Below are positions 3,032 to 6,710 of a stretch of 23,196 nt of DNA, in pieces (positions within the stretch are counted from its first letter, which is position 1; every line of letters starts with the position of its first letter). This DNA is from Candidatus Heimdallarchaeota archaeon (GTDB taxonomy: Archaea > Asgardarchaeota > Heimdallarchaeia > Hodarchaeales > Hodarchaeaceae), in NCBI GenBank assembly GCA_048881705.1, contig JBHLSH010000049.1, forward strand, positions 1 to 23,196, in the 5' to 3' direction. The notes below the pieces were generated by a model. That model was not told the DNA's origin, ran no database searches, and was given only the letters and a program-made list of their open reading frames with translations. Made by a program: the position numbers and the translations under genes.

Positions 3032-3916
3032 TCAAGAACTACTTCTACCTGGTCGGTTCATCCAGTAGTTCTGACAAAGGGGAAATAAAATGTTTATTGA
3101 AGTCTGGTCTACCCATGAACGTCCATTAAAATAAGCAACGACATATTCAACATAATGAGATATCATACGAAATCCTTGAATATAAGGGAGGAACTGATCC
3201 GGGGGAATTCTGACGCATACCTTGACCGTAACAGGGTTAACTGTCTCCATCTCCACCATAACATCCTCCATTTCTAGCCACGAAAAAAGTGTATCAAAAA
3301 AATGTTCTAAAAATCCAGGATTCCCCCAAATGGCCGGGTTAACATGTTCTATGGTATCTGTTTTTACCATTGAGCCCAATGTAAAATTCATCTGCGCTAA
3401 AAGCGGAAAATGAGAAAGGCTTCCCTTAAGAATTCTAGCAAGGCAGATGGGATGTGTTATTGGGGGTGTAGTGATCAACTGAATAATATCGGAAGCGATC
3501 AGGGTGGAAATTTTTTGCCTATGCGATGCCTGCAATATCCTGCTTAATATCAGGGGTGCCACCTGTTCATCTAACGCGAATGCATATGCTCCTAGACTAA
3601 TGGCCAGACTCGCTGTCCTTAATTCGTGTATTATCGACTCAATCAGGTTTGTTCTGTAACGATAAACAGTGTTTAAACACTGTAGAAAGTTATAACAATC
3701 GTTCAACTTTGTTTGCTTAAGTTCTAGATGCGATCTTTGAAAACTGGATTGCGGTATGGGATCTGTTGAGGGATGAAATCTACCTACCTGTGCGAATGCT
3801 TGAGAGTAAAAGAGTATCGAATTATCTTGAGGAGAAACAATTGCATAGGGATTAAAAGGTTGGTCCCCGATCTGTCCTAGGTCGGGTATCGAACAGGCGC
3901 CTTCTAATCCTTTCAT
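3032..3916 (-). CDS. Degenerate sensor histidine kinase-like protein (short PAS-like start, HisKA H-box, decayed HATPase)
   Basis: IIHELRTASLAI resembles the H-box HELRTPL. IWGNPGFLEHFFDTLF aligns with the N-box region but lacks the Asn. No DxGxG or GxGLGL. The C-terminus (YVEYVVAYFNGRSWV...INILFP) follows the HATPase terminal pattern. Confidence 0.6.
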   Translation of the reverse strand: MKGLEGACSIPDLGQIGDQPFNPYAIVSPQDNSILFYSQAFAQVGRFHPSTDPIPQSSFQRSHLELKQTKLNDCYNFLQCLNTVYRYRTNLIESIIHELRTASLAISLGAYAFALDEQVAPLILSRILQASHRQKISTLIASDIIQLITTPPITHPICLARILKGSLSHFPLLAQMNFTLGSMVKTDTIEHVNPAIWGNPGFLEHFFDTLFSWLEMEDVMVEMETVNPVTVKVCVRIPPDQFLPYIQGFRMISHYVEYVVAYFNGRSWVDQTSINILFPLCQNYWMNRPGRSSS

Positions 3917-3970: not shown

Positions 3971-4414
3971 TTATTTTTGCCTGAGTGTTGAAATAATTTT
4001 CTCCTTAGCAGGAGAGCTGGTTTTCCCAAGAATTCCATTCTTCTGCAAAATGCTATCTATTTCAAGTGAAAATCCCTCAAAGATTTTGGGTTCCAAGAAA
4101 TCTTGGCGTAGATATTCAGAATATCTATCCAAAAAGTTCGAGTGAATCTTCCTCATTATTGTAGCTATTTTTCGTCTGGATATGGTTCTCTTAGGTGTTA
4201 TTACGGCCAAAACCACACCCTGCTCCGATTCATAGAAGATATTATGGTGATCCATTCGAATTTCGTTGATCGCATCTCCAATGAGGTTTTCTGCAAAACA
4301 TGAAATTGCGGTTAACAACCCGCCAAATAGATCGAGATCCTTCGCATCGTCCCCATATGACCGTGATACTAATCCAAAGCCCGTTTCGTGAATTAAGAGG
4401 ATATTTTGAATCAT
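3971..4414 (-). CDS. Stand-alone longin-domain protein (Asgard eukaryotic-signature type)
   Basis: MIQNILLIHETGFGLVSRSY / DLFGGLLTAISCFAENL / INEIRM / VVLAVIT / KIHSNFLDRY / FEGFSLEIDSIL follow the longin beta-beta-alpha-beta-beta-beta-alpha-alpha pattern. AGGAGA ribosome-binding site upstream. Confidence 0.75.
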   Translation of the reverse strand: MIQNILLIHETGFGLVSRSYGDDAKDLDLFGGLLTAISCFAENLIGDAINEIRMDHHNIFYESEQGVVLAVITPKRTISRRKIATIMRKIHSNFLDRYSEYLRQDFLEPKIFEGFSLEIDSILQKNGILGKTSSPAKEKIISTLRQK

Positions 4415-4566: not shown

Positions 4567-4857
4567 TTAAATCTTTTCGCTCCTACCCATATCTTGCATT
4601 AATAAACTGAATAATTTCGGATTGTCAGAACAGTACAAATGCAAAATATCTTCATTACGGTTTTTCTTCATATGGAACGAGTGGCCAGTCGCGAGGGATA
4701 TTAAACTAAGTAAATGCTTAATATAGGGAGGATGATATTCTGTTTTCAGAGTTAACCTAATGGAATCGTCTAAAACTGAAAAATCTTCAAACAGAAATAT
4801 TGGAAGGAGTAGGAGTTGAATACCTACATCCTCGAAAATTTCAGTTGGTTTCCACAT
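4567..4857 (-). CDS. Hypothetical protein, 96 aa
   Basis: ATG-started ORF filling the gap between co-oriented genes; no recognisable motif. Confidence 0.55.
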   Translation of the reverse strand: MWKPTEIFEDVGIQLLLLPIFLFEDFSVLDDSIRLTLKTEYHPPYIKHLLSLISLATGHSFHMKKNRNEDILHLYCSDNPKLFSLLMQDMGRSEKI

Positions 4858-4893: not shown

Positions 4894-5028
4894 CTAGGCA
4901 CCGCCTGGATTATCTCCAGGCGGAGCTGTACTTGCAATAACGCTGATAAGAAGAAGTGAAATCCAGATTATTAACGGTACAGCTTGTATTAACCTGTGAC
5001 GACTGGGAAAGTATTGTTTTATGTTCAT
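4894..5028 (-). CDS. 44-aa secreted-peptide precursor or single-pass micro-protein (start corrected from the track's 5091)
   Basis: MNIKQYFPSRHRLIQAVPLIIWISLLLISVIASTAPPGDNPGGA. The ATG at 5028 is preceded by GGAGGTG (5034-5040) and a TATA-like CTATATAA (5057-5064). It has a basic n-region, hydrophobic h-region, V-x-A site and a polar Pro/Gly tail. Confidence 0.75.
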   Translation of the reverse strand: MNIKQYFPSRHRLIQAVPLIIWISLLLISVIASTAPPGDNPGGA

Positions 5029-5033
5029 TAAAA

Positions 5034-5064
5034 CACCTCCCCTTAATCGATCAAGGTTATATAG
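5034..5064 (-). promoter_or_regulatory. TATA-like box and Shine-Dalgarno site for the 44-aa peptide gene
   Basis: The minus strand reads TTTTTCTATATAACCTTGATCGATTAAGGGGAGGTGTTTTAATG, with archaeal TATA spacing and a strong anti-SD match. Confidence 0.6.
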
Positions 5065-5084
5065 AAAAATTAGTAACGAAAACC

Positions 5085-5166
5085 ATTTCACAACTTTTTA
5101 GGAAAACATGGTGAAATCATAAAGTGGCATAACTTTGAATGGTCAGCTATGGATATCACAACTTTT
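5085..5166. promoter_or_regulatory. Candidate operator array in the divergent promoter region
   Basis: TCACAACTTTT is exact at 5088-5098 and 5156-5166, with a degenerate CATAACTTT at 5128-5136. Inverted pair ATTTCAC (5085-5091) / GTGAAAT (5111-5117). Palindrome AAAGT-N6-ACTTT at 5121-5136. Confidence 0.45.
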
Positions 5167-5231
5167 AAATTGTATGGCCCTTCTTAGAGTGTAGTGCTCT
5201 TTGTTTAGCAGAAATGTGCGGCGATTAGCTG

Positions 5232-6710
5232 ATGTTTCAGCAGCAACCTATTTACATTAGAAAAAGAAAGGACTCAGAGAGTATAATCGAATATGAGCTC
5301 TTCTTCAAAGATCTAATAGACTACCTGGAGACCATAAGGCGTTTTATTCCAAAAGATGTCAACGAGATAAATTTGGTATGCAAAAGGTTGTATACAGATT
5401 ATACAAAACCTTTTTACAGTAAATGGGCAAATTTAAACCTTATTACCTGGAATTCTGAGTATGAGCAAAATTATCATTCATTTTTGCTGGAATACCTAAG
5501 TACAAAAATTCTCCTACCCCATAGATTTCTGATTTATTTGAATTTACAGCCTGAAACGGGCATTATAGATGAACTAAAAAAAGCCAAAAGTCCCAATTCG
5601 TTTTTCTTCATACTCAACAAGATTCAACGCGTACTAAACCTACCTTTATTGAGAAACGATGTAAGAATCATTGAGACGTTGACGAATCAACTTATAAAGG
5701 ATAAGATCCCTGTTTTTCCTTCAAATCGTCAGTTGGCTCGATTAATTCGCTGCAGCGAAAATACCATCTCGCGTAGGATTAATTTTTTAACCAATAGGGC
5801 TATGTTTACGCAAAAATACAGAGTCGATTTAGCTAAACTTGGTTATAATAGTTTCGCAATTATACACAAAGAACAGTTCGAAAATCTCCCTCCTTCGATC
5901 GAACCATTCTGTTTAGCAGATATTCCCATTGATTGGGGCGAGAGGGTTGCAAAGATTAAGATTTTTCAGATTCCTTATACAAAAAAAATACTATTAAGTG
6001 GTATAAGGGAATTTTATAGACCTGTTTATGAAATTACGCTCACCAAAAGCTATCTAGGGTGGAATTTGAGCGGACTCAAACCTGTTATCGCTGATCGCTG
6101 GAAAATTTATCCACCCATTTTTAATGGGGAACAATGGAGTGATATAGTTCTTTCACAATATAATGGTATTGAACAGAACCTATTTAATGATCTAACAGCC
6201 ATTAGGATTTCAAAAGTTCAAGCCAAAATGTTGGATCTTCTCCAAATAGAAGCACTAACCAACAAACATATTAGTAAAACCCTCGGTTTAACCCCAAAGT
6301 ATGTTCAAGAGTATTTTGAGCTATTCATAGAAAAAGAGTTGATCTCTCGGTTTTTACAGATTGGACATATGGGGCTTGATTCGAAGGTTTGGATCACTCT
6401 GATTGGATCAGAAGGGAATAATGACTATAACTTACTTACTAACATTGTGGAACATCTAAAATTCTTTCCGTTTAGCTGGCTGTTTTATAATGAAAACAAA
6501 ATGGATGCCGGAACCCGACCATTGTTGGCAGGACTTCTTTGGTTTCCATCTTCTTGGTTTGTTGATTTTTATGGGATTTGGATCCAATTGATCAATCACG
6601 GATTCATCCCAAAAGTTAATATGAGACAAGGGGTTATTAAATGGAATATCGAAATTGGGAAAACTTATGACTTTGCCAACACAAATCATTGGCTAGTAAC
6701 CAACAGGTAG
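5232..6710 (+). CDS. Large transcriptional regulator with two Lrp/AsnC-like wHTH + effector modules and an uncharacterised N-terminal region
   Basis: HTH1 PSNRQLARLIRCSENTISRRINFL...YRVDLAKLGY; HTH2 KMLDLLQIEALTNKHISKTLGLTPKYVQEYFELFIEKELI...IGHMGL. Confidence 0.75.
   Translation: MFQQQPIYIRKRKDSESIIEYELFFKDLIDYLETIRRFIPKDVNEINLVCKRLYTDYTKPFYSKWANLNLITWNSEYEQNYHSFLLEYLSTKILLPHRFLIYLNLQPETGIIDELKKAKSPNSFFFILNKIQRVLNLPLLRNDVRIIETLTNQLIKDKIPVFPSNRQLARLIRCSENTISRRINFLTNRAMFTQKYRVDLAKLGYNSFAIIHKEQFENLPPSIEPFCLADIPIDWGERVAKIKIFQIPYTKKILLSGIREFYRPVYEITLTKSYLGWNLSGLKPVIADRWKIYPPIFNGEQWSDIVLSQYNGIEQNLFNDLTAIRISKVQAKMLDLLQIEALTNKHISKTLGLTPKYVQEYFELFIEKELISRFLQIGHMGLDSKVWITLIGSEGNNDYNLLTNIVEHLKFFPFSWLFYNENKMDAGTRPLLAGLLWFPSSWFVDFYGIWIQLINHGFIPKVNMRQGVIKWNIEIGKTYDFANTNHWLVTNR

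Follow-up and report, generated by a model that had tools for sequence, protein, structure and literature searches.

A mini-gene divergent from a fused tandem Lrp/AsnC-type protein forms a conserved cassette in Asgard archaea and is a candidate for peptide-linked gene control

We analysed a 23,196-nucleotide (nt) stretch of DNA, hereafter the window, from a Candidatus Heimdallarchaeota archaeon of the Hodarchaeaceae (contig JBHLSH010000049.1 of assembly GCA_048881705.1), in which a mini-gene, sm, of 44 amino acids (aa) lies head-to-head with a gene for a 492-aa regulator. It makes up contig C49 of a genome of 3.96 Mb, which has a completeness of 91%. The two genes belong to a real, conserved and undescribed cassette, which is a candidate for peptide-linked gene control. 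An earlier note, made from the sequence of the window, had read the pair as a precursor of an exported peptide signal and its receptor, and by analogy with bacterial systems this peptide-signalling reading is plausible. A self-contained regulatory cassette of Hodarchaeales-type Asgard archaea with a peptide-autoinducer loop appears to be the single most likely mechanism, and we propose it tentatively.

Results

The mini-gene and the regulator are a conserved, multi-copy pair

Searches with the 44-mer across 40 related genomes (tblastn) gave weak matches sited 100-400 nt upstream of homologues of the 492-aa protein and divergent from them, and 65 non-redundant loci were then examined. Among these loci were 63 members or fragments of the regulator family. 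Taking as a mini-gene a small open reading frame (ORF) with a hydrophobic core and a short tail, we found one adjoining 52 of the 63, within one genus of Asgard archaea. The earlier note had proposed looking for small signal-plus-tail ORFs beside homologues of the regulator, and by this count the pairing is conserved. The small-ORF search found 48 of the 52 mini-genes, all divergent from the regulator; the other four were added with the family hidden Markov model (HMM) and by inspection, and at least two of these (L052 and L010) are co-directional with the regulator. A Shine-Dalgarno-like motif was flagged in 36 of the candidates picked by the small-ORF search. Of the 21 genomes of the genus, 20 have the regulator family, and a single genome can hold as many as 11 copies.

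Eleven regulators have no mini-gene: nine belong to tandem paralogue clusters, one (L009) has only ~230 nt of upstream DNA that could be searched, and one (L079) stands alone. Tandem clusters of three to four regulator paralogues were seen at L057 (G020:C234), L061 (G001:C14) and L056 (G005:C14); most of their members lack a mini-gene of their own, and some have ~100-aa and ~155-aa proteins between the regulators. No leaderless proline-rich micro-ORFs were found beside the mini-gene-less regulators of this genus. A 17-codon micro-ORF in L010 was rejected as it is the end of the full 46-aa mini-gene at that locus. A 13-codon proline-containing ORF with a Shine-Dalgarno-like AGGTG lies ~470 nt upstream of a distant regulator homologue (L098:1349-1387, minus strand, GCA_048886485.1), behind which come genes for a 101-aa protein and an MFS_1 transporter; this is a single case and could be due to chance.

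The 47 mini-proteins that we aligned form one family, marked by R-x-R in the n-region, L-L-K-L-L-P opening the hydrophobic core and S-x-G-x-A closing it; lengths in the family range from 43 to 56 aa. In their common layout a basic n-region (~20 aa) leads into a hydrophobic core (~15-17 aa), and a small-x-small junction separates the core from a tail rich in Pro and Gly, with median lengths of 20 aa for the n-region, 20 aa for the h- and c-regions together and 11 aa for the tail (range 8-18). By the −3/−1 heuristic, the small-x-small site is present in all 48 members scored, at a fixed distance after the core. The uncharged span runs from 13 to 32 aa across the family and is 20 aa or longer in most members, and in about one-fifth of the family a proline directly follows the best-conserved alanine of the junction. 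One subfamily carries PPG and PPP runs near the stop codon, and the tails of a second are Pro-poor.

Cassettes that share a genome have different tails, and the tail is the fastest-diverging part of the protein. Where the regulators are 60-80% identical, identities are 49% for the tail, 70% for the n-region, 66% for the h- and c-regions and 70% for the regulator. The tails also carry clade-specific motifs. The A-P-P-G-D motif at the junction recurs in a distant cassette, L099, whose regulator matches the family profile with an E-value of 2.6e-43, and in the more distant relatives L095 and L097 a short, ordinary n-region is followed by an exported part of ~45 aa that begins with PPG or PPD and runs on for ~40 residues beyond that start. 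Judged from gene content, the conserved multi-copy pairing with a distinct tail in each cassette is the genomic signature of peptide-receptor pairs.

In the genome that holds the window, the family HMM gave three significant matches among 83,898 small-ORF segments, namely the mini-gene of the window, that of another cassette (contig C5), and a copy on contig C40 that is an orphan. The same genome has four regulator-family matches, two of them outside a cassette; one of these two is a fragment on contig C81.

The mini-gene is coding and has the layout of a signal peptide with a short tail

The mini-gene is real and coding, and it is under purifying selection that includes the tail. In comparison with its closest orthologue the proportion of synonymous changes (pS) is 0.32 and that of non-synonymous changes (pN) 0.09 (pN/pS ~0.29), and the tail codons show four synonymous changes and one non-synonymous change. 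The values for the regulator, which is 86% identical to that of the same orthologue, are similar (pS 0.40, pN 0.07). The start codon of the orthologous mini-gene is TTG, and it stands behind an identical Shine-Dalgarno motif.

In the mini-protein of the window, residues 1-15 form a basic n-region (K4, R10, H11 and R12), residues 16-32 the hydrophobic and c-regions, ending in V-I-A, and the remainder is a Pro/Gly-rich 12-mer, STAPPGDNPGGA. The uncharged stretch measures 23 aa. The cleavage site was placed with the −3/−1 heuristic only, and V-I-A followed by S at the junction fits that rule. Thus the 44-aa ORF described in the earlier note, with its strong ribosome-binding site, TATA box and signal-peptide-like layout ending in a 12-mer tail, stands up as a gene and, by this heuristic scoring, as a layout; so do its head-to-head arrangement with the regulator and the repeated motifs between the two genes that are described below.

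Three other kinds of targeting signal were rejected on reading the sequences. There is no K/R-G/A/S site before the core, as a class III (pilin-type) signal would have; the mini-protein has no cysteine and so no lipobox; and the parts of an archaeosortase C-terminal signal would be in reversed order. Look-alikes of the 44-mer in the ESM Atlas reached a best score of 0.81 and gave no lead.

A single S26 signal peptidase was found in the genome, along with seven or more binding proteins of the Opp/Dpp type. Its Opp-type binding proteins also begin with long basic n-regions and have similar hydrophobic cores. Three of them lie in tandem (G000:C18:40977-48032, plus strand), each predicted to start with an N-terminal signal, to contain a Thr-rich linker and to finish with a C-terminal membrane segment and basic residues, and their C-termini look like an anchoring signal.

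The regulator is a predicted tandem Lrp/AsnC-type protein

Pfam gave only helix-turn-helix (HTH) matches below threshold for the 492-aa protein. A profile built from 56 family members matches Lrp/AsnC proteins twice, at residues 141-237 (PH1519, E 2.8e-5) and 322-418 (PH0140, E 3.4e-8). The AlphaFold2 model of the regulator is confident (predicted local distance difference test, pLDDT, 90.8; predicted template modelling score, pTM, 0.89) and its best match among solved structures is NirDL, with a Foldseek E-value of 1.7e-8 and a VIA Z of 13.9 over 268 aligned residues spanning 141-481. Single Lrp/AsnC regulators align to residues ~322-481 with Z values of 7-7.8 (VIA). No tetratricopeptide repeat (TPR) is matched by Pfam in the regulator, and the confident model has a tandem Lrp/AsnC fold over residues 141-481, residues 1-140 having been compared by fold only within the whole chain. 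Together the profiles and the model support two Lrp/AsnC-type units fused in tandem behind an extra N-terminal domain, much as the earlier note had it: a double-HTH protein with Lrp-type effector domains rather than TPRs. We infer that the protein binds DNA.

The regulator family is small: among 1.84 billion representative sequences it comprises 50 clusters at E <1e-30 and 123 at E <1e-10. Most homologues are labelled Hodarchaeales or Hodarchaeota and the closest one Thorarchaeota, all of these being groups of Asgard archaea. When the regulator was co-folded with the complete 44-aa precursor, the score was 0.01 (mark 0.32), a result that counts neither way.

The shared spacer carries a candidate operator

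The divergent mini-gene and regulator ORF are separated by 203 nt. Within this spacer a 14-mer is repeated directly (ATTTCACAACTTTT at 5085-5098 and ATATCACAACTTTT at 5153-5166), and ATTTCAC at 5085-5091 forms an inverted repeat with GTGAAAT at 5111-5117. The spacer is 74% identical to that of the orthologue, in blocks: the Shine-Dalgarno motif, the TATA-like box, both arms of the palindrome and the second half-site are kept, and the 19-nt inner spacer varies. Other clades of the regulator have conserved spacer motifs of their own, such as a TCTAGA-containing box just upstream of the regulator TATA.

A degenerate form of the 14-mer occurs without mismatch at only these two sites in the 3.96-Mb genome, in which the palindrome too has no second copy. 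With one mismatch there are 18 further copies elsewhere in the genome and 12 for a reversed-pattern control, so there is no sign of further target sites or of a wider regulon. Such repeats would suit an operator private to this cassette, through which the regulator may control its own gene. For the 11-mer core of the repeat there are four matches in the window against 0.92 expected; one exact copy, at 2414-2424 on the minus strand, lies inside a glyoxalase/HPPD-like gene (1709-2872) and is probably due to chance.

Table 1. Positions of the cassette genes and of the sites in their shared spacer, numbered as in the window
Feature	Position	Strand	Basis
Fourth operon gene, 294-aa protein with an invariant H-E-L-R-T H-box	3032..3916	−	Alignment of homologues
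Third operon gene, 147-aa longin-like protein	3971..4414	−	Weak Longin and Fuz_longin_1 matches below the Pfam cut-off
Second operon gene, 96-aa α-β-β-α-β-β-α protein, 36 nt after the mini-gene stop	4567..4857	−	Homologues in the same position elsewhere; pLDDT 88
Mini-gene sm, 44 aa plus stop	4894..5028	−	ORF call, family, layout, pN/pS
Shine-Dalgarno motif GGAGGTG, 5 nt before the mini-gene ATG	5034..5040	−	Read from the sequence; kept in the orthologue
Putative TATA-like box TTCTATATAA, ~28 nt upstream of the mini-gene ATG	5057..5066	−	Inside a spacer block conserved in the orthologue
Candidate operator palindrome ATTTCAC-N19-GTGAAAT, upstream of the mini-gene promoter	5085..5117		Arms conserved in the orthologue
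Second half-site copy ATATCACAACTTTT (5153-5166), running into the regulator TATA-like TTTTAAAT	5150..5178		28 of 29 bases kept in the orthologue
492-aa tandem Lrp/AsnC-type protein	5232..6710	+	Profile matches, AlphaFold2 model, structural match to NirDL
Regulator domains: 1-140, extra; ~141-320 and 322-481, each a winged HTH (wHTH) plus a RAM-like unit	within 5232..6710	+	Profiles, model

The mini-gene heads an operon of signalling-type proteins

The mini-gene is the first gene of an operon; the three genes behind it encode, in this order, an α/β protein of ~100 aa, a longin-like protein and an H-box (DHp) protein (Table 1). No T-run terminator was seen between the mini-gene and the gene for the 96-aa protein. 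The promoter and terminator scan was a bacterial one and is uninformative for an archaeon.

The position of the 147-aa longin-like protein is kept in seven other cassettes and that of the 294-aa H-box protein in ~14. Across 11 homologues the latter has an invariant H96-T100 segment, within I-H-E-L-R-T, and further invariant residues. Its match to the DHp region of CpxA is not significant (E 0.07), and it showed no Pfam kinase domain, no significant sequence match in the PDB and, by eye, no obvious membrane segment. For the fold of the 96-aa protein Foldseek returned nothing at E <=0.001, and the best VIA Z was 5.0 (ArgR C-domain, H-NOX and ACT-like proteins), so that the protein was assigned to no known family; Roadblock was not among the fold matches listed. 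The idea that the ~100-aa protein is a stand-alone copy of a regulator domain was rejected, as hhalign comparisons of the two ~100-aa alignments (A4 and A6) with that of the regulator (A1) came back empty.

In the other subfamily of cassettes this place is taken by a ~100-aa protein that is related to the first (hhalign 72%, E 3e-5), and different small proteins come after it. Distant cassettes have neighbours of 101-124 aa that scored below 10 bits against either ~100-aa alignment, so that homology is not demonstrable. Among the operon products of sister cassettes are proteins with a receiver domain, NUDIX proteins and Arf/Ras-like GTPases. The distant cassette L099 (L099:737-2371, minus strand, GCA_016839955.1) belongs to the last kind: downstream of its mini-gene the operon encodes a protein of ~103 aa, an Arf/Ras-like GTPase of 281 aa and a TrmB/HTH_24 protein of 93 aa, and it links the cassette to small-GTPase signalling. 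On the 3′ side of the regulator lie DUF7388 and DUF362 genes in the window, and elsewhere a Mrp/ParA ATPase with an MFS_2 transporter, or an EamA transporter. No modifying enzymes were found near the mini-gene cassettes.

Because the mini-gene heads an operon of cytoplasmic signalling-type proteins, the module is larger than a two-gene Phr-like pair. The Phr/PapR/AimP-like layout that the earlier note had seen holds in that a small export-tagged gene stands beside a regulator, and falls short in that the operon brings further genes into the module.

Discussion

A peptide-autoinducer loop and its alternatives

We propose the following model for the cassette. The tandem Lrp/AsnC-type protein would bind the palindrome and the half-site in the 203-nt spacer, and from there control both its own gene and the divergent mini-gene operon. 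The N-terminal signal would target the mini-gene product to the membrane, where signal peptidase I would cut at the small-x-small junction and release a Pro/Gly-rich peptide of ~9-15 aa, here the 12-mer STAPPGDNPGGA. The released peptide would then report to the regulator, the likeliest route, by analogy with the bacterial RRNPP systems, being re-uptake followed by binding to the RAM-like effector domains. The outcome would be an autoinducer-like loop with a private peptide for each cassette, in which the ~100-aa α/β, longin-like and H-box proteins may serve as cytoplasmic output or modulator parts. A more far-reaching version, in which Asgard archaea have a gene-encoded peptide autoinducer channel independent of the bacterial RRNPP systems, with a tandem-Lrp intracellular receptor and several orthogonal pairs per genome, we regard as doubtful.

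In favour of the autoinducer loop stand the conserved pairing, the uniform signal-like layout, the constrained tails that differ from cassette to cassette, the two wHTH plus RAM-like units of the regulator and the conserved operator-like repeats. Machinery that could serve it is also encoded: the S26 signal peptidase and the Opp/Dpp-type binding proteins in this genome and, in other cassettes, MFS or EamA transporter genes immediately behind the regulator gene. A number of observations weigh against a peptide that is exported, cleaved and sensed. No importer or membrane receptor is present in the cassette of the window. The n-region is as conserved as the regulator, which suggests a cytoplasmic role beyond targeting, and the uncharged span of 20 aa or longer in most members could stay in place as a membrane anchor. 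A proline at +1, as in about one-fifth of the family, would shift cleavage one to three residues upstream or prevent it, and the junction was scored with the −3/−1 heuristic only. The pairing also has exceptions within the window's own genome. The C40 orphan (G000:C40:7155-7379, plus strand; L092:3156-3380) has no adjoining regulator, and a full-length 507-aa regulator paralogue on contig C14 (G000:C14:47849-49372, plus strand; L093:4850-6373; HMM E 1e-124) has no recognisable mini-gene in the flanks inspected. Archaea are not known to have SecA or a route by which a 44-mer would be exported post-translationally; the known ligands of RAM domains are amino acids and not peptides. As to the orphan itself, it lies just upstream of a gene for a 470-aa BNR-repeat protein, with a Ras-family GTPase gene ~1 kb away, and its tail is identical to that of a copy in the closest relative (G001:C14:81905-81997) while the hydrophobic core is different.

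Several of these points would also fit a product that is never cleaved, that is, an N-in, C-out single-pass membrane protein, tail-anchored in style, whose conserved cytoplasmic N-region of 15-20 aa tethers or modulates the regulator, the soluble operon proteins or both, and whose short outside tail is a sensor stub or a topology determinant. Such a protein would account for an n-region (median 20 aa) that is conserved like the regulator and has R-x-R and L-L-K-L-L-P motifs throughout the family, for the long uncharged span (20 aa or more in most members, range 13-32) and for those members with a proline directly after the conserved alanine. In addition, no other product of the operon spans the membrane, the rest being soluble proteins of signalling type, and a 44-mer must insert post-translationally. 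We regard this as a serious rival, less probable than the autoinducer loop but close to it. Against it, the distance from the core to the small-x-small junction is fixed in each of the 48 members scored, and the tail is under purifying selection and has clade-specific motifs. Moreover, the distant relatives combine a short ordinary n-region with an exported part of ~45 aa, and long basic n-regions are normal for the signal peptides of this genome.

If the peptide is exported and cleaved, it might instead act outside the cell, at the surface or in adhesion, as an antimicrobial or between species, the neighbouring regulator controlling its production without sensing it. The export-like layout, the regulator-less orphan beside a BNR-repeat protein and the lack of an importer in the cassette of the window are all consistent with this. 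The near-universal adjacency of the mini-gene to one regulator family and the presence of several cassettes per genome, each with a distinct tail, argue the other way; a structural or antimicrobial peptide would be expected to be longer than these tails of 8-12 aa, which have neither cysteine nor a charge pattern, and there are no modifying enzymes nearby. We consider it improbable. Least probable is that the mini-ORF is a cis-acting leader, in which aIF5A-dependent pausing of the ribosome at the proline-rich end would tune the operon genes that begin 36 nt downstream. The PPG and PPP runs near the stop codon in one subfamily and the lack of a T-run terminator before the next gene would suit such a leader. 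On the other hand, the second subfamily has Pro-poor tails, selection at the protein level covers the n-region and the core, and, from the lengths involved, the hydrophobic core would still be in the ribosome tunnel at termination. For this last reason an arrest peptide that senses force in the manner of SecM or MifM cannot work, the tail being too short for the core to leave the ribosome, and that variant was rejected.

The peptide-autoinducer loop stays our tentative choice, with a membrane-anchored mini-protein not far below it in probability.

Significance

In Asgard archaea a family of unannotated mini-genes is thus tightly paired with a fused double-Lrp protein, in many copies and within a restricted clade. 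Should the peptide prove to be a signal, peptide communication would have arisen here by convergence, with a receptor of a new fold, and Lrp-type RAM domains would gain a new class of ligand. Should the mini-protein prove to be a membrane anchor, it would offer a new means of tying a transcription factor of an archaeon, and proteins of the longin, kinase or GTPase type, to the membrane. Our literature search found no publication that describes the mini-gene/tandem-Lrp cassette and no description of a peptide-plus-receptor circuit in Archaea, which agrees with the statement in the earlier note that no characterised archaeal equivalent was known. In that literature, descriptions of gene-encoded RRNPP-like cassettes of peptide and receptor are confined to Bacillota and their mobile elements (PMC10075063, PMC9765709).

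Comparison with known systems

The regulator shares with the Lrp/AsnC (FFRP) proteins, for example PH1519 (FL11) and PH0140 of Pyrococcus, a predicted wHTH followed by a RAM-like domain of the βαββαβ type in each half, and palindromic sites that adjoin its own promoter. It differs in that two such units are joined in one chain behind an extra domain of ~140 aa, and the known effectors of that family are amino acids, not peptides. A single chain of two Lrp/AsnC-like units is also found in the siroheme decarboxylase NirDL/AhbA-AhbB (PDB 4ch7, 4czc). NirDL is, however, an enzyme of haem d1 and haem synthesis that is 11% identical to the regulator and has no partner mini-gene, multi-copy expansion or operator-like repeats. 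The neighbours of the regulator are unrelated to haem synthesis, nothing observed points to haem chemistry, and its family reaches up to 11 copies per genome, where NirDL/AhbAB would be present in one or a few. The regulator belongs to the Lrp/AsnC fold class, and NirDL is the one protein for which this fused form has been solved to date; its context and copy number are unlike those of NirDL.

MgrB and the anti-sigma factors offer a parallel to the mini-gene, in that the gene for a tiny bitopic protein lies beside a regulator on which it could act, and in the conserved cytoplasmic N-end and short outside tail. There is no sequence relation, and those proteins are bacterial and have kinases or sigma factors as partners. 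With Agr/Com-type sensing, in which a membrane-embedded sensor kinase and a response regulator are encoded alongside the peptide, the points of comparison are the 294-aa protein of the window's operon, which has the H-E-L-R-T box and no Pfam kinase match, and the receiver domain in some of the sister cassettes.

The closest functional parallel to a peptide-autoinducer loop is with the RRNPP(A) cassettes of Bacillota and their phages (Rap-Phr, PlcR-PapR, NprR-NprX, AimR-AimP and Alo), which are defined by five criteria (PMC10075063). Three of these describe the present cassette, namely a propeptide of 10-100 aa (44 aa here), a receptor of 250-500 aa (492 aa here) and direct neighbourhood of the two genes; for a fourth, secretion of the propeptide by Sec or PptAB, the observation is of an n/h/c layout and a −3/−1 site in 48 of 48 members by heuristic scoring; and the fifth, a receptor that bears TPRs, separates the two. 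In both systems a small gene with an N-terminal export signal is the immediate neighbour of a gene for a cytoplasmic regulator (250-500 aa), the mature peptide would come from the C-terminal part, many paralogous pairs occur per genome, each with its own peptide (compare PMC7425212), and the peptide end diverges faster than the rest. The differences are that the receptor here has a fused tandem Lrp/AsnC fold and the host is an Asgard archaeon, that the n-region is long and conserved, and that the mini-gene heads an operon with ~100-aa, longin-like and H-box proteins; the peptide cycle of the present cassette is, in addition, a proposed one. Since its receptor has no TPRs the cassette is not an RRNPP system, yet by analogy it may work like an RRNPP pair while standing outside that family.

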